From Kineococcus radiotolerans SRS30216 = ATCC BAA-149 (GTDB lineage Bacteria; Actinomycetota; Actinomycetes; Actinomycetales; Kineococcaceae): DNA of 32,000 nt. Below, in pieces: positions 910-28,613 of the stretch (within the stretch, counting starts at the first letter, position 1; each line of letters starts with the position of its first letter). The notes below the pieces were generated by a model. It made no database searches and was not told the origin of the DNA. It was given only the letters and a program-made list of their open reading frames with translations. The stretch is taken from the NCBI RefSeq assembly GCF_000017305.1, contig NC_009664.2, forward strand, positions 420,001-452,000. The letters run 5' to 3'. The translations under genes and the position numbers were made by a program.

Positions 910-1587
910 TCAGGACGGCCGCAGCAGGGCGGTGAGCAGCGCGATCCGCTCGGGGTCCAGGGTGCCGGCGCGGTGGGCGTCGGCGATCTCCGCCCCGCTG
1001 AGGCCGGCGCGGGCGGCGGCGAGCACGAGGGCGAGGTCGAGGCCGGGGTCCGGGCGGGCGGGGTCCGGGGCGGTGAGCGCGGGCCCCAGGCGGGCGGCGA
1101 GGTCGTCGCGGACGAGGGCGTAGGCCAGGACCTCGGCGGGGTCGAGGACGCGGCGGTGGCCGGTGAGGACCTGCCGGGCGCGCAGGACGCCGGTGGGGTC
1201 GCCGACGCGCAGGGCCCGGCCGTCGAGGTGGGTCGCCACGACGCGGGTGCCCAGGGCGGCGACCTCGACGTGGTGGCCGGTGGTGGCGGCCACCGCGGGC
1301 AGGAGGAGGTGGCGGTGCAGGTCGGCGTGGGCGGCGGGCCAGTCGAAGGGCGGCTGGTCGCCGGTGTCGACGTGGCGGTGGTGGGCGGCGGTCAGGCCGG
1401 TGCGGCGGGCCGGCCCGGCGAGGGGGCCGCCCGCCGCGGCCCGCCAGGCGGCCCAGAGGACGGGGGGGACCCCCCAGTGCGGGTCGGGGCGGGCGGGGGG
1501 CGGGGCGAGCAGGTCGAGGCCCTCGAGGACGAACGGCTCCCGGGGCGGCCCGGGGCGGGGGCGGCGGTGACGCCTGCGGGCGGGCAC
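910..1587 (-). CDS. hypothetical protein (225 aa)
   Basis: Track ORF 910..1587. GC3 is near 100% when read by hand. It stops 48 bp upstream of the next minus-strand gene, suggesting an operon. GTG 1587 is the only upstream ATG/GTG start I could find. No family recognised. Confidence 0.55.
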   Translation of the reverse strand: MPARRRHRRPRPGPPREPFVLEGLDLLAPPPARPDPHWGVPPVLWAAWRAAAGGPLAGPARRTGLTAAHHRHVDTGDQPPFDWPAAHADLHRHLLLPAVAATTGHHVEVAALGTRVVATHLDGRALRVGDPTGVLRARQVLTGHRRVLDPAEVLAYALVRDDLAARLGPALTAPDPARPDPGLDLALVLAAARAGLSGAEIADAHRAGTLDPERIALLTALLRPS

Positions 1588-1589
1588 CC

Positions 1590-2351
1590 GTGGAGGCTAC
1601 GTCGGAGCCGGGTGCGAGGGTGCCCGGCGTGGACCGCTCCGACGAGCCCGACCGCGGCGGGGCCCTCCCGCCCGGGTCCCTCCCGCCCGGGGCGCTGCCC
1701 CGCCGCGGGGAGCCCCTGCCCGCGCGCTGGGGCGAGCTGCCCTGGCCGCGACCGACCCCGGCGGCACTGGTGACCGTGCTCGCCCGCGCGGTGCGGCCCC
1801 CCGGCGCCGACGACCTGCCGCCCTCTCCGGCGCGGGCGGGGGGCGCGCCCGGCCCGTGGCCCGCCCGCCGGGTCCCCGGCCGGCCGGGGACCGTCCGCGG
1901 CGCGTCCCGGCCCGCCCCGGCGGTGGACCCCGCGGAGCTGCCCGAGTACGCCCGGGTGCGGGCCGCGACGGGGGTCGCGGCCCTGTCGGAGGCGGAGCTC
2001 GACGACGACGAGGCCTTCCGCGCCGAGGTGTGGCTGCGGGCGTGGGTGCGGGCGCACCGCTCCCCCGCCGTGCGGGCCTGGCTGCGGGCCCGCCACCCCG
2101 ACCTGGCCCCGGAGGCGGTCACGCGGGCGGCGCGGGAGGTGAGCCTGCCCCTCGCGCTGGCCGTGGTCGACGTGGAGGTCGTCGTCGTCGCCCTGCGCGA
2201 GGGCTGGGACGACGCGTGGACGGCCGCGGTGCAGGAGGCGGGGTTCGGGGCGCAGGAGGCACGGGCGCTGCACGGGCGCGAGGACGCCTGGGCCGTGGTG
2301 GACACCGTCCTCGCCCTCACCGGGGCCGGGGCGGGCCGCCCCGGCCGGTGA
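1590..2351 (+). CDS. hypothetical protein (up to 253 aa; low-complexity Pro/Arg/Gly N-terminus, helical acidic C-terminal half)
   Basis: Track ORF 1590..2351. The frame has G/C-ending codons throughout (GCG GTG GAC CCC GCG GAG CTG CCC GAG TAC...). The start is uncertain: in-frame alternative GTGs lie at about 1620 and 1629. It converges on the VWA gene with a 9-bp gap. Confidence 0.5.
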   Translation: MEATSEPGARVPGVDRSDEPDRGGALPPGSLPPGALPRRGEPLPARWGELPWPRPTPAALVTVLARAVRPPGADDLPPSPARAGGAPGPWPARRVPGRPGTVRGASRPAPAVDPAELPEYARVRAATGVAALSEAELDDDEAFRAEVWLRAWVRAHRSPAVRAWLRARHPDLAPEAVTRAAREVSLPLALAVVDVEVVVVALREGWDDAWTAAVQEAGFGAQEARALHGREDAWAVVDTVLALTGAGAGRPGR

Positions 2352-2360
2352 GCGGGCGGC

Positions 2361-4754
2361 TCAGCCCCGGCGCGGGTCCCGCCCGGCCCCGGCGGGCACG
2401 ACGATGGTGTGCATCCAGGCCGGGACGCCCTCCCGCTCCCCGTCCAGGAGCAGCACGACGTAGCGGGCGTCGGGGTTCTCCGGTGGTGGCGCCGCCGGCC
2501 ACGGGGTGTCCCCGTCGGTCATCGTGATGACGAGGTCGAACCGGGGACGGGCCCGGGCCGCGGCCCGCAGCCCCTCCCGCATGTCGGTGCCGCCACCGCC
2601 GACCATCCGCACCTCGCTCATCGAGCGCACCGTGCGCGGCGCCGAGGCCGCCGCGTCGCAGGCGATGACCGTGACGCCCTCCCCGCGGCAGCGGCGCACC
2701 ACGACCGCGGTCTCGGCGTGCACCCGGCTCAGCATCGCGTCGCTGATGGAGCCGGAGGTGTCCACGACCGCCGCGACGCGCGGGGGCCGCGGCTGGCGCA
2801 TCGCGGGCATGACGACGCCGGGGAAGGACGCGGCCCGCCGCGAGGGGCGGGCGTAGGAGTAGTCCCTGACCCCGGCGACGTTGGCGCTGACGCGGCGGGT
2901 GACGCTGTCGAGCTCCCGGCGCCAGTCCACCTCCGGTTCCAGGACGAGGGTGGCCCAGCGCTGCCACCCGGCGGGGACGCTGCCGCAGCTGCGGGCGTGC
3001 TCCAGCACCGCGCGGGCGGTCTGCTGCCGGATCAGCTCCGCCCGGCCCGCGTCGACGCTGCCGTCGTCGCGACCCTCGGCGTCGGTGCCGGACTCGTCCT
3101 GCTCCCAGGCCCGCCGGGGCCCGCCCGCGCCGGAACCGCAGTCGTCGCCGTCGTCACCGTCGTCGCCGTGGTCCTTGTCCCCGTCGCCGGGCCCCGGCGC
3201 GTCCTCCCCCGCCGCCGCGGGGGGGACGTCCGCCGGGTCGGTGTCCTCGCCCGCCGCGTCCGCCCCGAGGCCCGGGGAGGCCGGGGCGGGCGCGCCGCGT
3301 CCGCCGACGGTCAGGGTGGCGAGCGCCTGCTCGTCCCCGGTGGTGAGGACGACGGCGTAGCGCCCCACGTCCAGGGGCCGCAGGAGCGGGACGTGCGCCA
3401 CCGAGGGGCTGCGCACCTCCAGCGGCCCGGTCGCCGCGACCACCTCGGCGGGCTCCCGGGCGGGGTCGAGGACGGCGAGGGTGCTGGTGGCGTCCACGAC
3501 GAGGTCGTCGGTGGTGACGGCGAGGGTCAGCGGGGTCCGGTGACCGGCGGGGAGGGTGGCCGGGTGCAGGGTCAGGAAGGGCCGGCCCACGGGCAGGACG
3601 GCCTGGACGACCTCCGGGCCGGTGGTGGCGCGGACCCGGTGGGTGCCCTCGGGGACCTCGGCGAGGTCGACGGCGAGGTGGGTGGCGCTGACGTGCTCGA
3701 CGCCGGCGACGACGTCGAGGGGGCGCCCGGCGGCGTCGAGGACCTCCACGCGGGAGGTGGCGTCGAAGCGGGTGCCGTCGCCGACGAGGACGACCCGCGC
3801 GGGGCTGCCGTGGCCGCGGACGAGGTGGTCCGGGCGCAGCCGCAGGGTGGGCGTGGTGATCGTGAACCCCGTCCGGGCCCGCTCCTCGCCGCGGGCGACG
3901 ACGACGTCGTAGCGCCCCGGCGGGAGGCGGGTCCCGAGGGTGAACGACCCCTGGCGGGGGCCGCGCACGCGCAGGGCGCCGAGGGCGGGGGTCCCGTCCT
4001 CGCCGGTGACCGGCTCGCCGTCGTCCCCGTGGTCCCCGCCGTCCCCGTCCCGGCCGCTGTCCCGGGCGGGGCGGGGGTGGTGGTGGAGGGTGACCGTCGT
4101 GGAGGCGTCCAGGAGCGGCTCGCGGGTGAAGCAGAGGACGTCGGCGGGCAGGGCGTCGTCGTGGCGGAGGGTGTCGGGCAGCAGGAGCAGGCCGGGGCCG
4201 GGTCCGGCGGGGCGCTGCCCGGCGGGGCCCTGCAGCAGCAGCCGGTAGAGCTGCTCGGCGGTCGAGCCCTCCTCCGCGCCGGGGACCTGCTCGGGGAACC
4301 AGGCCCCCACCGGCGGCGGCTGCACCCCGGCGGCGCGCAGGTCGGCGTTGACGGCGCAGTCGGCGGCGCGGTTCCACAGCCCGGCGCGCGCGGCGGGTTC
4401 GGCGAGGTCGCGGAACCGTTCGGCGTGCCGGCGCAGGGGGTGGCCGACCTCGTGCAGCCAGGCCCCGGCGACCTGTTCGACGGTGAGGGTGGCGATGAAC
4501 CCGGGGTGGTAGGTCATCCGCCAGCGGGTGTCGATGGCGAGGGTGGGCACCCGCGTGCTGGGGACGGCCTTCACCGCGTAGAGCGCGTCCGCCAGGTACG
4601 GCATGAGCTCGGTGGCCCGGGCGCGGCCGGCGGCCAGCCGCAGCCCGGCCCGGCGCAGGAGGTCCTCGTCGGGCGGGGCGTCGCCGGCGCGGCCCGGCGG
4701 GGTCGGGCGCGGGGCGCGGCCGGGCGGGGCGGGGCGGGGGACGGGGCGCGGCAC
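2361..4754 (-). CDS. VWA-domain / putative Zn-metallopeptidase protein (DUF2201-type architecture) with a large beta-rich repeat insert
   Basis: 797 aa. The N-terminal region has HEVGH (HExxH, residues 101-105) followed by NRAADCAVNADL. The C-terminal region has the VWA MIDAS elements VVDTSGS (DxSGS, residues 665-669), GGGGTDM and ITMTDGDT. Residues ~180-545 lie between these two domains and are extra. Its GTG start lies 3 nt after the upstream ATPase stop. Confidence 0.8.
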   Translation of the reverse strand: MPRPVPRPAPPGRAPRPTPPGRAGDAPPDEDLLRRAGLRLAAGRARATELMPYLADALYAVKAVPSTRVPTLAIDTRWRMTYHPGFIATLTVEQVAGAWLHEVGHPLRRHAERFRDLAEPAARAGLWNRAADCAVNADLRAAGVQPPPVGAWFPEQVPGAEEGSTAEQLYRLLLQGPAGQRPAGPGPGLLLLPDTLRHDDALPADVLCFTREPLLDASTTVTLHHHPRPARDSGRDGDGGDHGDDGEPVTGEDGTPALGALRVRGPRQGSFTLGTRLPPGRYDVVVARGEERARTGFTITTPTLRLRPDHLVRGHGSPARVVLVGDGTRFDATSRVEVLDAAGRPLDVVAGVEHVSATHLAVDLAEVPEGTHRVRATTGPEVVQAVLPVGRPFLTLHPATLPAGHRTPLTLAVTTDDLVVDATSTLAVLDPAREPAEVVAATGPLEVRSPSVAHVPLLRPLDVGRYAVVLTTGDEQALATLTVGGRGAPAPASPGLGADAAGEDTDPADVPPAAAGEDAPGPGDGDKDHGDDGDDGDDCGSGAGGPRRAWEQDESGTDAEGRDDGSVDAGRAELIRQQTARAVLEHARSCGSVPAGWQRWATLVLEPEVDWRRELDSVTRRVSANVAGVRDYSYARPSRRAASFPGVVMPAMRQPRPPRVAAVVDTSGSISDAMLSRVHAETAVVVRRCRGEGVTVIACDAAASAPRTVRSMSEVRMVGGGGTDMREGLRAAARARPRFDLVITMTDGDTPWPAAPPPENPDARYVVLLLDGEREGVPAWMHTIVVPAGAGRDPRRG

Positions 4755-4757
4755 GGC

Positions 4758-5912
4758 TCAGCCCCGGCCCTGGCCCTGGCCCTGGCCCTGGAGGAGGTCC
4801 AGCTCCCGCAGGATGGGGGCCAGCCCCCGCACGATCCGCTCGGTGGGCATCGCCCCGCTCGGGCGCGCCGCCGCCCACCGCCGCCCGTGGGAGAACGCGA
4901 TGTCGGCGCTGCCGGCGTCGGCGATGGCGGCCAGGACGGTGCCGCAGTTGACCCACCGCTCCGGGGTGTTCCGCGCGGCCGTGGCCGCCCACACCGACGC
5001 CGCGACGGCGTAGGTCCGGTCGGTGCGGCGGCGGTCCACGACGTAGGAGTCGGGGTCGGCGAGCAGGGTCTCGGGGTCGGGCAGGTCCAGCTCGCGCAGG
5101 TAGTTGAGGAACATCCCGCCCGCGCTGATGCCGACGGTGCCGGCCACGAGCATCGTCACGACCGTGCTGTTGGCCCCCGCGGCCCGGGCGAAGGCGTGCA
5201 GGCGGGCGGCCATCTCCCACGAGCGGGGCGTGGGGAAGGCGCGCCCGGCCTCCTCGGAGGAGCGGGGCAGCTGGGTGACGAGCTCGGGCCGGGAGCCCAG
5301 GAAGACCCCGACCAGGGCGAGGGTCCGGGTCAGCAGGGCCGCGACCTCGCTGTCGTCCACCGCGGGGACCGCCACGGCCGGCCACCCCGTGCTGAACCCC
5401 TCCCGCACGGTGTCCGCGTCCAGCTCCCAGCTGAGGTGGACGAAGCGGTTGGCGACCGGCGGGGCGAGGTCCCACCCGTCGGCGGCGACGTCGGGCGGGT
5501 TGGCGGCGGCGACGGTCCGCACGCCCTCGGGCAGGCGCAGGTCCCCCACCACCCCCTCGAGGATGGGCCGCAGCAGCGCCGCCTGGGTGGCCGGCGGCGC
5601 GGTGGAGACCTCGTCGTAGAACTGGATGCCGAGGCGGCCCTCCTCCACCACCGCGTCGCGCAGGCGCACCGCCCAGGACGGGGCGGCCAGGGAGGCGGTG
5701 CGGGTCACGGGGTCCACGACGGGCAGCCCGGCGAAGTCGCTGGGCTCGCGGATGGAGGCGATGACGGTCTCCAGGTGGGCGTCCAGGCCCCGGGCCAGCT
5801 CCTGCACCACCGAGGACTTCCCCTGCCCGGGCGGCCCCCACAGGATCACCGGGACGTCGGCGAGCAGGGCGACACCCAGGGCGGTGCAGGTGTCGGTGTG
5901 GCGCTGGCTCAT
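4758..5912 (-). CDS. MoxR-class AAA+ ATPase (AAA_5-like)
   Basis: Walker A is ILWGPPGQGKSS and Walker B is IQFYDEVS. I place the start at ATG 5912..5910 (MSQRHTD...) because GGAGGA lies 8 nt upstream. The track ORF start at 5954 has no such site. The C-terminus is (GQ)n. Confidence 0.85.
   Translation of the reverse strand: MSQRHTDTCTALGVALLADVPVILWGPPGQGKSSVVQELARGLDAHLETVIASIREPSDFAGLPVVDPVTRTASLAAPSWAVRLRDAVVEEGRLGIQFYDEVSTAPPATQAALLRPILEGVVGDLRLPEGVRTVAAANPPDVAADGWDLAPPVANRFVHLSWELDADTVREGFSTGWPAVAVPAVDDSEVAALLTRTLALVGVFLGSRPELVTQLPRSSEEAGRAFPTPRSWEMAARLHAFARAAGANSTVVTMLVAGTVGISAGGMFLNYLRELDLPDPETLLADPDSYVVDRRRTDRTYAVAASVWAATAARNTPERWVNCGTVLAAIADAGSADIAFSHGRRWAAARPSGAMPTERIVRGLAPILRELDLLQGQGQGQGRG
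4766..4789. repeat. hexanucleotide microsatellite (GGCCCT)x4
   Basis: Direct reading: ggccct ggccct ggccct ggccct. It encodes the (QG)4 tail of the ATPase, just before its stop and the downstream VWA start. Confidence 0.95.

Positions 5913-7436: not shown

Positions 7437-7464
<28 letters not shown>
5992..7464 (+). CDS. sensor histidine kinase (TM - extracytoplasmic loop - TM - HAMP - HisKA - HATPase_c)
   Basis: It lies in the frame of track ORF 5626..7464. The start is set at GTG 5992 (VWRRAGVRVRSTVAATALLAVLVAAG..., first TM helix). H-box is SHELRSPVATL, N-box is NLSDNAVRHA, G-box is GGTGLGLPIVRETVAAHGG. The C-terminal 28 aa are low complexity (PPDAPPDAPP...). Confidence 0.85.
7388..7415. 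repeat. 12-bp tandem duplication (ccccgccggacg x2.3)
   Basis: Direct reading. It encodes the PPDAPPDAPP stretch in the non-conserved tail of the kinase. Confidence 0.9.
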
Positions 7465-17497: not shown

Positions 17498-18436
17498 GTG
17501 CCGGCCGAGGCCACCACCCGTCCCGAACTCGTCCCGCTCGGGCCCGGCGCCCACGACCTGATCCACTTCTCCCTCGTCGTGGCCGGGTTCGCCCTCCTGG
17601 CCCACTTCCTGCGGACCTGGCACTCCACCGGCGAGGTGAGCGCCCGGTACCGCCCCGCGGTGCTGGCCTCCCTGGCCGTCACCGGCGTCGCGTTCCTCTC
17701 CTACGTCTACCTCGTCCTGGAGTTCGACCAGGGCTACGACCTGCGCGAGGGGGTGTACCAGCCCAACGCCGAGGCCCTGAACACCCTGGTGCCGCGCTAC
17801 ATGGACTGGGCCGTCACCGTCCCGCTGCTGATGGTCGAGTTCCTCGCCGTGTCGGCGGTGGTGGGGGCGGCGGCCCGCCGAACCCGGTTCACGCTGGTGG
17901 GCCTGGCGTTCCTGATGATCCTCACGGGGTTCATCGGTGCCGCGGTGCAGGAGGACGGGACCAGCCGGACCGCCCTGATCGCCTGGGGGGTCGTCTCCAG
18001 CGCGTTCTACGCCGCGCTGCACGTGGTGCTGATCCGGGTGCTGCGCCGGTCCCGGGGCGCGATGGGCGCGCAGGCGTACACCAGCTACCGCAACGCCACG
18101 ATCCTCCTGCTGAGCGTCTGGGGCTGGTACCCGATCGCCTACGCCCTCCAGGTCTGGTTCGGGGGCCAGTGGTGGACGGTGACGATCCAGGTCGGTTTCA
18201 GCGCCGCCGACATCGCCGCCAAGGTCGGCTTCGGTGCGCTGATCCACAAGGTCGCGAAGCTGCGCACGGCCGAGGAGGTCGAGGCGGGGTCGACGACCCA
18301 CCCGGAGGAGGTCTGGATCTCCTCCGTCCGGTTCTCCGAGGGCGTCCAGCCCGTCCTCAAGGGGGTGCTCGGCCCGGACCACCACGACCACCACGGCGGG
18401 CGGGTCGACCCGGCCGGGGACCCCGGGCACCACTAG
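17498..18436 (+). CDS. type-1 microbial rhodopsin (7-TM retinal protein, DTE motif; predicted light-driven proton pump)
   Basis: 312 aa with seven hydrophobic helices. Helix C is R100-YMD103-WAVT107-VPLLMVE114-F (compare proteorhodopsin RYIDWLLTVPLLICEF and BR RYADWLFTTPLLLLDL). Helix F is SVWGWYPIAY (PR GWAIYPVGY). Helix G is AAD238-IAAK242-VGFG (BR DVSAKVGFG), with the Lys codon aag at 18221-18223. AGGAGG lies 4 nt upstream of the GTG start. Confidence 0.85.
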   Translation: MPAEATTRPELVPLGPGAHDLIHFSLVVAGFALLAHFLRTWHSTGEVSARYRPAVLASLAVTGVAFLSYVYLVLEFDQGYDLREGVYQPNAEALNTLVPRYMDWAVTVPLLMVEFLAVSAVVGAAARRTRFTLVGLAFLMILTGFIGAAVQEDGTSRTALIAWGVVSSAFYAALHVVLIRVLRRSRGAMGAQAYTSYRNATILLLSVWGWYPIAYALQVWFGGQWWTVTIQVGFSAADIAAKVGFGALIHKVAKLRTAEEVEAGSTTHPEEVWISSVRFSEGVQPVLKGVLGPDHHDHHGGRVDPAGDPGHH

Positions 18437-21621: not shown

Positions 21622-23082
21622 TCAGGTGCCGCAGAAGGTCCGGTAGGCGCCGAAGTCCTCCGGGGCCGGGGCCGCGTAGCGCTCCAGCCCCGGACGCTCC
21701 TCGTAGGGCGCGTCCAGGACCTCCACGAGACGCTGCACCGGGCCGAGGTCACCGCCGGTCGCGGCGGTGAGGGCCTCCTCGACGAGGTGGTTGCGCGGGA
21801 CGTAGACCGGGTTCACCCGGTCCATGGCCGTCCCGTCGGGGCTCAGGGCGAGCCAGCGCTCCAGCCAGTCCCCGAACGCCGGGTCCGCGACCAGCGCGCG
21901 CACGGGGGCGGCGTCCCCGCGCGCCGCGACGGCGAGGGCGCGGAAGAACGACGTGTGGTCGGGGCGGTCGCGGGTGAGCAGGTCCAGCAGGTCCCCGGTG
22001 AGCGGGGTGGTGACCGCGTCCCCGAGGTCGTCGGGCAGGCCGAGCTTGGCGCGCATCCCCCCGGAGTAGGCGGCGTCGTAGCGGGTGCGGAAGGTCCCCA
22101 GGGCCTCGGTGGCGAGGGCCACGGCCTGCTCCTGGTCCTCGTGCAGCAGGGGCAGCAGCGCCTCGGCGAGACGGGCGAGGTTCCACTCGGCCACGGCGGG
22201 CTGGTTGCCGTAGGCGTAGCGCCCGGCGTGGTCGATCGAGCTGTAGACGGTGGCCGGGTCGAAGGCGTCGAGGAAGGCGCAGGGCCCGTAGTCGATGGTC
22301 TCCCCCGAGATCGTCGTGTTGTCGGTGTTCATGACGCCGTGGACGAACCCCACGAGCATCCACCGGGCCACCAGCGAGGCCTGGGCGGCGACGACGGCCT
22401 CGAACAGCGCCAGGGGCGGGTTCGCGGCCGTCGCGGCGGCGGGGTGGTGGCGGGCGGTGGCGTGGTCGGCGAGGCGGCGCAGCAGGTCGGGGTCGCCGGT
22501 GGCGCGGGCGTACTGGAAGCTGCCGACGCGCAGGTGGCTGGCCGCGACCCGGGCCAGGACGGCACCGGGCAGGGTGGTCTCGCGGTGCACCGCGCGCCCG
22601 GTCGCCACCACGGCCAGGGCGCGGGTGGTGGGGATGCCCAGGGCGTGCAGGCCCCGGCTGACGACGTGCTCGCGCAGCATGGGTCCCACCGCGGCCAGGC
22701 CGTCGCCGCCCCGGGCGAACGGGGTGCGCCCGGACCCCTTGAGGTGCAGGTCGCGGACCCGGCCGTGGACGTCGACGAGCTCACCGAGCAGCAGCGCGCG
22801 CCCGTCGCCGAGGCGGGGGGAGAACCCGCCGAACTGGTGCCCGGCGTAGGCCTGGGCCACGGGCTCGGCGCCCTCGGGGACCTCGGTGCCCAGCAGGAGG
22901 CCCAGCCCCTCGGGACCGCGCAACCAGCGGGGGTCGAGGCCGAGCTCCACGGCCAGCTGCTCGTCGAGCACGAGCAGGTGCGGGTCGGGGGCCGCCTCCC
23001 CCTGCCAGGGGACCGCCATCTCGGGCAGTTCCCGCGCGAAGCGGTGGTCGAGGACGATGGTCGAGGACGGTGCCACGCTCAT
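21622..23082 (-). CDS. selO: protein adenylyltransferase SelO (YdiU/UPF0061 family)
   Basis: 486 aa. Motifs: [101 protein letters not shown]. Confidence 0.9.
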
Positions 23083-23199: not shown

Positions 23200-24885
23200 T
23201 CAGGCGTCGATGACGACGGGGATGATCAGCGGCGCGCGCCGGTACGTCCGCCGGGCCCACGAGGCCACGGTGCGGGCGATGACGTCCTCGAGCTGGCGGG
23301 AGTCGGGGTGCCCGTCGGTGGCGGCCCGGGCCAGCGCCTTCTCGATGAGGGGCACGACGGGGTCGAAGGAGTCCCCGGCGTGGACGAAACCGCGGGCCAG
23401 GAAGTCCGGCGGGTCGGCCAGCTGCCCCGTGTCGGCGTCGATGATCGCGACGACGGCGAGGACGCCCTCCTCCGCGAGGGTGCGCCGGTCCTGCAGGGAC
23501 GCCTCGGTGGCTCCCCCCACGACGGAGGCGTCGACGTAGACGTTGTGCACGGGCACCTTGCCCACCACCGACGCCCGGCCGTCGACGAGGTCGACGACGT
23601 GGCCGTTCTCGGCGACCACCACGTTGCGGGGGTCGACGCCGGTCTTGACGGCGAGGTCGGCGTTGGCGCGCAGGTGGCGCGACTCCCCGTGCACCGGCAT
23701 CACGTTGGACGGCTTGACGATGTTGTAGCAGTACACGAGCTCCCCGGCGCTGGCGTGGCCGGAGACGTGGACCTTCGCGTTGCCCTTGTGCACGACGTTC
23801 GCGCCGAGGGAGGTCAGGCCGTTGATGACCCGGTAGACGGCGTTCTCGTTGCCCGGGATGAGAGAGCTGGCCAGCAGGACGGTGTCGCCCTCGCGGACGC
23901 GGATGACGTGGTCGCCGCCGGCCATCCGCGACAGCGCCGCCATCGGCTCCCCCTGGGAGCCGGTGCACACCAGGGTCACCTTCGAGGGCGGCAGCTTCTC
24001 CAGGACCTTGAGGTCCACGACGAGGCCGGCGGGGATCTTCAGGTAGCCGAGCTCCGCGGCGATGCCCATGTTGCGCACCATGGAACGCCCCACGAAGGCC
24101 ACCTTCCGCCCGTGGGCGGCGGCCGCGTCCAGCACCTGCTGGATGCGGTGGACGTGGCTGGCGAAGCTGGAGACGATCACCCGTCGCGGCGACTTCCGGA
24201 AGACGGTCTCGATGGCGGGGATCAGCTCCCCCTCCGAGGCCGTGAACCCCGGCACCTCGGCGTTGGTGGAGTCGGTGAGGAAGAGGTCGACCCCCTCCTC
24301 GCCCAGGCGCGCGAAACCGCGCAGGTCGGTGATGCGCCCGTCCAGGGGGAACTGGTCCATCTTGAAGTCGCCGGTGTGCAGCACCAGGCCGGCGGCGGTG
24401 CGGATGGCCACGGCCAGCCCGTCGGGGATGGAGTGGTTCACCGCGACGAACTCGCAGTCGAAGGGGCCGAAGCGACGCTGGTCGCCCTCGGTGACCTCCA
24501 CCGTGACGGGGCGGATGCGGTGCTCGGTGAGCTTGGCGGTGATGAAGGCCAGCGTCAGCCGGGACCCCACCAGGGGGATGTCCGGGCGCTCGCGCAGCAG
24601 GTAGGGGACACCGCCGATGTGGTCCTCGTGCCCGTGGGTCAGGACGATCGCCACGACGTCGTCGAGGCGGTCCCGGATGGAGGTGAAGTCGGGGAGGATG
24701 ACGTCGATGCCGGGCTGGTGCTCCTCGGGGAAGAGCACCCCGCAGTCCACGATCAGCAGCTTGCCCGCGTGCTCGAAGACCGTCATGTTGCGGCCGATCT
24801 CGCCGAGGCCCCCCAGCGCGACCACCCTCAGGGCGTCTTTGGCCAGGCGCGGGGGGGCGCCCGTGTTCAGCCGTGGAGAACTCAT
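23200..24885 (-). CDS. rnj: ribonuclease J (metallo-beta-lactamase / beta-CASP RNase)
   Basis: 561 aa. Motifs: LRVVALGGLGEIGRNMTVFE, ILPDF, the beta-lactamase motif VLTHGHEDHIGGVPYLL, HTGDFKMD, SGHASAGEL. Confidence 0.95.
   Translation of the reverse strand: MSSPRLNTGAPPRLAKDALRVVALGGLGEIGRNMTVFEHAGKLLIVDCGVLFPEEHQPGIDVILPDFTSIRDRLDDVVAIVLTHGHEDHIGGVPYLLRERPDIPLVGSRLTLAFITAKLTEHRIRPVTVEVTEGDQRRFGPFDCEFVAVNHSIPDGLAVAIRTAAGLVLHTGDFKMDQFPLDGRITDLRGFARLGEEGVDLFLTDSTNAEVPGFTASEGELIPAIETVFRKSPRRVIVSSFASHVHRIQQVLDAAAAHGRKVAFVGRSMVRNMGIAAELGYLKIPAGLVVDLKVLEKLPPSKVTLVCTGSQGEPMAALSRMAGGDHVIRVREGDTVLLASSLIPGNENAVYRVINGLTSLGANVVHKGNAKVHVSGHASAGELVYCYNIVKPSNVMPVHGESRHLRANADLAVKTGVDPRNVVVAENGHVVDLVDGRASVVGKVPVHNVYVDASVVGGATEASLQDRRTLAEEGVLAVVAIIDADTGQLADPPDFLARGFVHAGDSFDPVVPLIEKALARAATDGHPDSRQLEDVIARTVASWARRTYRRAPLIIPVVIDA

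Positions 24886-26075: not shown

Positions 26076-28613
<2,538 letters not shown>

Follow-up and report, generated by a model that had tools for sequence, protein, structure and literature searches.

The stretch analyzed here, referred to as the window, is a 32,000-nucleotide (nt) segment of the Kineococcus radiotolerans SRS30216 (= ATCC BAA-149) chromosome (contig NC_009664.2, positions 420,001 to 452,000) with a G+C content of ∼78%. Its minus strand carries two adjacent genes, one coding for a 384-amino-acid (aa) AAA+ ATPase and the other for a 797-aa protein of the DUF2201 type, in which a zincin-like HExxH lobe is combined with a VWA domain. Both reading frames have a third-codon-position G+C fraction (GC3) of 0.98. 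The two genes form a chromosomal, self-contained two-gene operon, and the 797-aa protein contains an insert of ∼360 aa which is a real, folded, and dispensable accessory module in a known but uncharacterized AAA+/zincin-VWA machine. The features of the pair are as follows, with open reading frame (ORF) positions counted from the first letter of the window, model confidence given as the predicted local distance difference test (pLDDT), and immunoglobulin abbreviated to Ig.

4758 to 5912, minus strand: ATPase ORF, 384 aa, with an ATG start at 5912 preceded by a GGAGGA Shine-Dalgarno motif and a TGA stop at 4758 to 4760
5814 to 5837, minus strand: ATPase Walker A, GPPGQGKS, residues 26 to 33
5610 to 5621, minus strand: ATPase Walker B, FYDE, residues 98 to 101
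5499 to 5510, minus strand: ATPase sensor-1-like AAAN
ATPase, reaching about residue 315: conserved C-terminal domain
4755 to 4760, minus strand: gene junction, with the ATPase TGA (4758 to 4760) and a 3-nt spacer, GCC, followed by the GTG at 4754
2361 to 4754, minus strand: zincin-VWA ORF of the DUF2201 type, 797 aa, with a GTG start at 4754; matches PF13203 (E = 4e-33) and PF09967 (E = 8.5e-18)
4227 to 4649, minus strand: N-terminal helical zincin-like lobe, residues 36 to 176, PF13203 profile positions 6 to 135
4425 to 4454, minus strand: zincin motif HEVGHPLRRH, with HEVGH at residues 101 to 105
4338 to 4373, minus strand: zincin motif NRAADCAVNADL, residues 128 to 139
3855 to 4193, minus strand: Ig-like repeat 1, residues 188 to 300, modeled as a β-sandwich
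4005 to 4085, minus strand: acidic/His-rich loop of repeat 1, residues 224 to 250, low model confidence
3585 to 3854, minus strand: Ig-like repeat 2, residues 301 to 390, starting with LRPDH (3825 to 3839); pLDDT about 90 to 97
3300 to 3584, minus strand: Ig-like repeat 3, residues 391 to 485
3147 to 3299, minus strand: acidic disordered tail, residues 486 to 536; pLDDT <50, Asp plus Glu 27%, hydrophobic residues 4%
2790 to 3146, minus strand: second PF13203 part, residues 537 to 655, a helical region after DDCGSGAGG (3120 to 3146)
2385 to 2789, minus strand: VWA/MIDAS domain, residues 656 to 790, PF09967
2748 to 2762, minus strand: MIDAS motif DTSGS, residues 665 to 669
2583 to 2600, minus strand: GGGGTD, residues 719 to 724
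2508 to 2519, minus strand: TDGD, residues 746 to 749

The insert comprises residues ∼177 to 536 and is skipped by a 443-aa Kineococcus homologue (P0019) that is otherwise 52% identical over residues 49 to ∼175 and 75% identical over residues 537 to 786. A preliminary description of this DNA, made from the sequence alone, had placed an extra segment at residues ∼180 to 545 between the peptidase and VWA domains. Comparison with the 443-aa homologue bears out the ∼360 extra residues, but the segment does not lie cleanly between domains. It sits inside the PF13203 model span, at a linker of family-wide variable length, and divides the match into profile positions 6 to 135 (residues 40 to 184) and 162 to 269 (residues ∼539 to 651), the second half still being recognized when scanned alone (E = 7e-13).

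AlphaFold modeling of the insert alone gave three seven-stranded β-sandwiches with a pLDDT of 89.1 and a predicted template modeling score of 0.72, so that the repeats are confidently folded, and the full-length model likewise shows three all-β repeat segments, with residues 486 to 540 disordered. The three tandem Ig/TIG-like repeats proposed earlier at residues 261 to 485 are indeed three and Ig-like, although they span residues 188 to 485, repeat 1 starting ∼70 residues earlier; folded repeats do not continue to residue ∼545 as had been supposed, since residues 486 to 536 form the acidic disordered tail. A Foldseek search of the Protein Data Bank (PDB) with the insert returned 441 matches at an E value of ≤0.001, with three-domain Ig tandems on top: titin I65-70 (5e-10), NCAM Ig1-3 (6e-10), and then Dscam (E values of 5e-10 to 1e-9 and a probability of 1.00 for these top matches). 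The bacterial proteins FdeC and Sap come further down the list, and identity is 8 to 15% throughout. Neither the whole insert nor single repeats matched any Pfam family, IPT/TIG, Ig, and Big included, even at E values of ≤10, and a PDB profile search with the insert gave nothing below an E value of 0.027. The predicted fold is therefore generically Ig-like, and a specific TIG assignment is unsupported given that there is no Pfam match and that the structural matches are to generic Ig tandems.

The three repeats are related to one another. When the corresponding segments were cut from a 21-sequence alignment and compared with hhalign, probabilities were 96.9% for repeats 1 and 2, 98.4% for repeats 1 and 3, and 98.9% for repeats 2 and 3, with E values ranging from 2e-10 to 1.5e-17 (the latter for repeats 2 and 3). 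Since they are mutually only 22 to 35% identical, the triplication is old, and the same figure rules out a recent DNA duplication as their origin. Each residue of the LRPDH motif (Leu306, Arg307, Pro308, Asp309, and His310) reaches at least 90% conservation over the full alignment, and none of them varies in the 14 insert sequences. In the 21-sequence alignment, the loop of repeat 1 at residues 224 to 250 occurs only in K. radiotolerans-type sequences and is absent from the other homologues. Hydrophobic residues make up 23 to 32% of the folded repeats, and the tail, with its 27% of acidic residues, is of a conventional kind. Homology searches with the insert alone or with a 24-sequence repeat profile returned no match, missing even the 97%-identical P0001; this reflects a word-index limit and is no evidence of absence elsewhere. 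A metagenome scan with repeats 2 and 3 also found nothing.

Both flanks of the insert belong to well-defined families. The 797-aa protein, which is 97% identical to a K. radiotolerans “putative metal-dependent peptidase,” scored 115.5 bits against PF13203 (DUF2201_N; gathering threshold, 23.2) and 65.1 bits against PF09967 (VWA-like; gathering threshold, 26.4), the latter over residues 660 to 761. Pfam thus recovers the peptidase and VWA domains that had been proposed, and with PF13203, PF09967, and PF07728 all above threshold, the assignment to the DUF2201-type pairing of an HExxH and VWA protein with an AAA+ ATPase holds; NCBIfam contained nothing for the VWA protein. Across 21 close and 58 distant homologues, His101, Glu102, His105, His110, Asp132, and Asn136 are invariant or nearly so and the MIDAS residues Asp665, Ser667, Ser669, Thr723, and Asp747 are invariant, as are Asp538, Cys539, Gly540, and Ser541 in the 21-sequence alignment. 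The window protein accordingly has every family-invariant element, namely, HExxH with the downstream H/D/N, DCGSG, and the MIDAS DxSxS...T...D. The zincin-like HExxHxxxxH lobe is a putative metallopeptidase. The full-length model has a mean pLDDT of 74.5, with values of ∼86 to 95 for residues 31 to 110 and ∼56 to 86 for residues 111 to 176. Its Foldseek matches in the PDB are dominated by Ig tandems, with nothing on the zincin lobe.

The partner ATPase matches PF07728 (AAA_5) with 29 bits against a cut-off of 22, covering all 139 profile positions. By contrast, it scored 20.8 bits for AAA_3 (PF07726, MoxR proper) and 22.2 bits, with only 52 residues covered, for bpMoxR (PF20030), both below the Pfam threshold of 27, and the earlier label “MoxR-class” is therefore right in a broad sense but not in that of MoxR proper. 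The closest solved sequences are the Midasin AAA modules (E = 1e-4), NorQ being a weak match (E = 0.22). One moderately hydrophobic stretch (residues 251 to 269, KD19 of 1.86) lies within the conserved C-terminal domain.

Read directly from the minus-strand coordinates, the 384-aa ATPase does stop 3 nt before the 797-aa protein, and all of the motifs quoted in the preliminary description are present (GPPGQGKS, FYDE, HEVGH, NRAADCAVNADL, DTSGS, GGGGTD, and TDGD). In the window and in the orthologous loci L001 to L005, the VWA gene is immediately preceded by the AAA_5 ATPase gene in the same orientation. The tight spacing is conserved between genera, as a 3-nt gap in the window and L002 or a 4-nt overlap in L001 and L004, and suggests that the two genes are translationally coupled. 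The 3′ end of the ATPase gene (4761 to 4790, minus strand) consists of a hexanucleotide tandem repeat, (CAGGGC)x4, which encodes a (QG)4 tail, abuts the 3-nt spacer, and may be prone to slippage.

We then placed the insert within the family by searching 1.84 billion cluster representatives (50% identity clusters) exhaustively with HMMER, which retrieved 10,225 proteins at an E value of ≤1e-3, where weaker matches may cover one domain only, and 1,328 at an E value of ≤1e-30. Among the best 150 representatives, the repeat is present in 10, which are also the 10 top-ranked, so that the insert is rare and not a property of most members. The 138 repeat-free proteins of this set that have both flanks are short (median, 438 aa; interquartile range, 415 to 477 aa), and their linker at the homologous site varies from 0 to 241 aa, with a median of 33 aa. 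Long linkers are low-complexity sequences rich in Ser, Asp, and Glu (mean Asp plus Glu, 22%; hydrophobic residues, 4.6%). The insertion site is a family-wide hypervariable acidic tether splitting the zincin domain, and in the window this tether consists of three folded domains and then an acidic tail equivalent to the low-complexity linker of the other members. In four representatives (P0027, P0030, P0040, and P0047), the acidic linker is flanked by CxxC on one side and CP/H on the other, an arrangement resembling a zinc-ribbon-like element split by the linker.

Repeat copy number was determined by scanning one genome per species with a repeat hidden Markov model. Most Kineococcus species have three repeats, as do Modestobacter and Goekera (Geodermatophilaceae). 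Two are present in several Actinoplanes species and in Micromonospora rosaria, and a single metagenomic representative has one; Kineococcus spp. DK019, DK010, TRM81007, and G2 and the 26 other loci scanned have none. In a neighbor-joining tree of the flanking domains, which is rough and without support values, the four insert-less Kineococcus sequences nest within the three-repeat Kineococcus clade, which points to repeats that were gained once, were later reduced in number, and were cleanly lost at least once. The hypervariable linker site, the range of 0 to 3 copies, and this clean loss in a Kineococcus subclade make the insert an accessory, lineage-restricted element that the core machine can do without. 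Mean pairwise identity among the long forms is 66 to 71% for the zincin, helical, and VWA parts, 43 to 54% for the Ig repeats, and 23% for the acidic tail. These identities, together with the conservation of LRPDH, indicate that the insert is maintained by selection.

The VWA protein has no transmembrane-like segment (maximum KD19, 1.23), and on inspection its N terminus lacks a signal-peptide-like hydrophobic stretch. It is thus predicted to be soluble, and the ATPase/zincin-VWA machine is most likely cytoplasmic. The same two features led us to reject a secreted adhesin or surface protein and make literal surface recognition, which the preliminary description had allowed, unlikely; a ligand-binding role for the insert is one that we infer.

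Conservation across genera is limited to the ATPase-VWA pair. Of 88 sequences (87 fetched loci plus the window), 84 have an ATPase homologue upstream of the VWA gene, and clustering of the neighboring ORFs revealed no third partner common to the genera. Conservation of the surroundings, proposed earlier as a check, therefore extends to the pair itself but not to its neighbors, which change: upstream are a divergent histidine kinase and a response regulator in the window and its closest relatives, LOR and PspC genes in Modestobacter, and TerD and a PolA-family gene in short-form Kineococcus. Downstream in the window, a convergent 253-aa ORF (1590 to 2351, plus strand) ends 9 nt from the VWA stop. 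The genes flanking the pair in the window are of a housekeeping kind (a two-component system, an amino-acid permease, an EAL protein, and a transglycosylase), the pair is common to Kineococcus species, and local gene order is kept in the closest relatives. A prophage remnant is ruled out by these ordinary chromosomal neighbors and by the shared presence and order of the genes.

Within Kineococcus, a 214- to 225-aa protein without a Pfam match accompanies the pair in 15 loci and the window (910 to 1587, minus strand, in the window; 6173 to 6817 in L004; 11171 to 11728 in L002). In most species its gene immediately precedes that of the ATPase in the same orientation, and in the window's subclade it is found downstream of the VWA gene, past the convergent 253-aa ORF. 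It is linked to the pair only within this genus and may be a genus-specific third partner or merely inherited synteny. A PolA-family DNA polymerase gene (553 to 584 aa; 3960 to 5621 in L001 and 3047 to 4801 in L004) precedes the pair by one to three genes in the Modestobacter/Goekera and short-form Kineococcus loci and was not found in the other loci. A variant of the short-form pair has a superfamily 1 (SF1) helicase gene (AAA_30/AAA_12) ∼1.4 kb downstream, as in L040 on Rhodococcus opacus plasmid pHG201 (8572 to 9978) and also in L042, L044, L052, L063, L071, L072, L075, L077, and L078. This helicase is 83 to 95% identical across Rhodococcus, Streptomyces, and Nocardioides contigs and a “Dehalococcoidia” metagenome-assembled genome, which suggests carriage on a mobile element.

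Elsewhere in the window, the histidine kinase gene (plus strand, ending at 7464) and the response regulator gene (minus strand, ending at 7437) are convergent with a 28-nt 3′ overlap (7437 to 7464) and do not form a codirectional operon; the layout is identical in Kineococcus sp. R86509. A bacteriorhodopsin-like gene (17498 to 18436, plus strand; PF01036, E = 2.5e-28) lies near genes for SelO (21622 to 23082), RNase J (23200 to 24885), and a UvrA-like ABC ATPase (26076 to 28613).

Taken together, we favor, with a little better than even confidence, a cochaperone machine in which the Ig triple and the acidic tail are a lineage-specific adaptor or spacer arm. By analogy with BchI-BchD, CbbQ-CbbO, NorQ-NorD, and Midasin, an ATPase oligomer and the VWA protein would probably act as a chaperone/cochaperone pair, with the MIDAS clamping an acidic residue of the client or of the ATPase. 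ATP-driven remodeling could then present the client to the zincin site, where the zincin lobe would cleave what is exposed, and the Ig triple with its acidic tail may recruit or position the client or a partner. Several points weigh against this proposal. Peptidase activity, contact between the ATPase and the VWA protein, and a client are all inferred, and, as the preliminary description had stated of its function, the literature that we searched (DUF2201, PF13203, PF09967, COG3864, APE2220, and N4 gp24/gp25) holds no functional test or study of the DUF2201 family and only incidental mentions. No solved structure is detectable by sequence for the 797-aa protein when the PDB is searched with a long-form profile, and a profile of 58 short-form homologues (A4) yielded weak and partial matches to the VWA and HExxH regions, the best solved VWA relatives being an uncharacterized VWA protein (8s05, E = 4e-4) and the VWA domain of the Mg-chelatase subunit BchD (2x31, E = 0.0019). 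Against characterized peptidases, the zincin lobe has a marginal match to an M48 peptidase around the HExxH (E = 0.011). The neighbor-joining tree behind the history of the insert has no support values, and the clean loss in sister species and the faster evolution of the insert fit a passive spacer as well as an adaptor.

How the arm would work is where the closest competition lies. As a passive spacer, the Ig triple would have no specific ligand and would be a tolerated rigid replacement or extension of the tether between the zincin lobes, length and flexibility being sufficient; we consider this possible though doubtful. It would account for the 0 to 241 aa of unrelated, mostly acidic low-complexity sequence that repeat-free members tolerate at the site, for the copy number of 0 to 3, for the intact flanks left by the loss in Kineococcus, and for an insert that evolves faster than the core domains. 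However, LRPDH does not vary among insert sequences and further positions are conserved across genera, all three repeats are kept at 43 to 54% identity from Kineococcus to Geodermatophilaceae, and the acidic tail is retained besides the repeats, so that these are not a simple tether replacement. We give a slight preference to an arm recruiting a client or partner over a passive rigid spacer, since two orders have kept the motifs and all three copies; the spacer follows close behind because the insert was lost in sister species and arbitrary linkers are tolerated at the site. A bolder version, in which the Ig triple is a client-selecting arm that would redirect an otherwise generic zincin-VWA machine, gated by ATP, toward a cytoplasmic substrate specific to the lineage, seems to us unlikely.

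The remaining explanations change the role of the whole machine. The pair might be a conflict or antiphage switch, that is, a nucleoside triphosphate-gated module of defense or abortive infection in which the protease would be the effector and the Ig insert would sense the invader, which we judge improbable. MoxR-vWA modules are reported to occur in conflict systems (PMC7159879), the linker is hypervariable, and related pairs are carried by phages and by a Rhodococcus plasmid or mobile element. Yet neither protein matches PADLOC-DB v2 at an E value of ≤0.01, the neighbors giving only a generic receiver-domain match of the response regulator, and NCBIfam antiphage models appear only at E values of >0.05. 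The housekeeping character of the flanking genes, the spread of the pair among Kineococcus species with synteny kept in the closest relatives, the subthreshold bpMoxR score, and the lack of a third VMAP or β-propeller component also argue against defense, and the “conflict-type switch” of the preliminary description finds no support in PADLOC or in the gene neighborhood. Even less probable, in our view, is a chaperone for insertion of a metal center or cofactor of the BchI/BchD, CobS/CobT, NorQ/NorD, or CbbQ/CbbO type, in which the HExxH lobe would bind metal without being proteolytic. With the short-form profile, the VWA domain of BchD is the best functionally known solved relative, NorQ is among the weak ATPase matches, and an acidic linker before the MIDAS domain is a feature of both BchD and Midasin. 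Against this, no metalloenzyme or cofactor-pathway gene is conserved beside the pair, the phage versions lie among replication and nucleotide-metabolism genes, and the full HExxH...H/D signature is invariant, as for a hydrolase.

The AAA_5 and DUF2201 pair is very widespread, occurring on chromosomes, on at least one plasmid, and in N4-like and jumbo phages. What the window adds is a map of where the DUF2201 family tolerates change, namely, an acidic tether splitting the zincin domain, and a rare subclade in which this tether gained folded Ig-like domains whose copy number differs between close relatives. A binding partner of the Ig arm, should there be one, would offer the first clue to a DUF2201 family client, whereas an arm without any ligand would leave the insert as no more than a structural curiosity. 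Should the arm be client selecting, the series of three, two, one, and no copies across Kineococcus, Geodermatophilaceae, and Micromonosporaceae would be a ready allelic series for finding the first DUF2201/N4 gp24-gp25 substrate. The main value of the window lies in this natural allelic series with which to probe the function of the DUF2201/N4 gp24-gp25 family.

Among known systems, tandem Ig proteins (titin I-band, NCAM, and Dscam, and the bacterial FdeC and Sap S-layer proteins) share with the insert the fold and the arrangement of three domains as beads on a string (Foldseek E values of 5e-10 to 1e-7). These are extracellular adhesins or sarcomeric proteins, whereas the insert, 8 to 15% identical to them, is predicted to be intracellular and is internal to an enzyme. 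The BchI-BchD, CbbQ-CbbO, NorQ-NorD, and RavA-ViaA pairs resemble the window in combining an AAA+ motor of the helix-2-insert clade with a MIDAS-bearing VWA protein, and Midasin/Rea1 unites an AAA_5 ring, an acidic region, and a MIDAS in one chain. Unlike the window, these pairs and Midasin/Rea1 have neither an HExxH zincin lobe nor Ig repeats, and the similarity is marginal. The ternary systems of MoxR, vWA, and β-propeller or VMAP components (Kaur et al. 2020) differ in that the window ATPase falls below the bpMoxR threshold and no conserved third gene accompanies the pair. Also close are the short-form DUF2201 pairs of other actinobacteria, for example those of Kineococcus spp. TRM81007, G2, DK010, and DK019 (443 aa), which have the same operon, 75% identity over the C-terminal 250 aa and 52% over the N-terminal lobe, and a partner ATPase of 378 aa, close to the 384 aa of the window, but no Ig repeats and a linker of 21 aa at the insertion site compared to 360 aa.

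Phage relatives were found for both proteins. The VWA protein matches phrog_1314 (E = 4e-44) and the ATPase matches phrog_1297, “ATPase” (E = 6e-39, residues 10 to 315), and by tblastn the VWA part was detected in 135 phage records, mostly of N4-like podoviruses and jumbo phages. In Achromobacter phage JWAlpha, gp33 is annotated as an N4 gp24-like ATPase and gp36 as an N4 gp25-like DUF2201_N protein (PF13203). “HNH endonuclease” is the name given to the DUF2201 zincin-VWA protein in PHROGs (phrog_1314) and in many phage GenBank records (e.g., NC_023556.1 gp36); the protein has no evident HNH feature, and the name looks like a propagated misannotation. BFVD models of phage “metallopeptidase/VWA-like” proteins of ∼380 to 450 aa align over both flanks of the insert, with a target-normalized TM-score of up to 0.66. 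For jumbo phages, a MoxR-vWA chaperone-cochaperone pair with an N-terminal metallopeptidase has been described, and a role in virion assembly or processing was proposed without experiment (Iyer et al. 2021, PMC7824862). The phage proteins differ from those of the window in their length of about 380 to 450 aa without an Ig insert, in an identity of only 25 to 33% over the VWA part, and, in the phages examined, in the small ORFs that lie between the two genes, which in the window are 3 nt apart; the window pair, unlike theirs, is chromosomal and outside a prophage context. Both N4 gp24/gp25 and the jumbo-phage pair nevertheless place, like the window, an AAA+ ATPase gene near a zincin and VWA gene. 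Judged by sequence, the window pair corresponds, in a cellular setting, to phage N4 gp24/gp25 and to the jumbo-phage MoxR-vWA/metallopeptidase pair.

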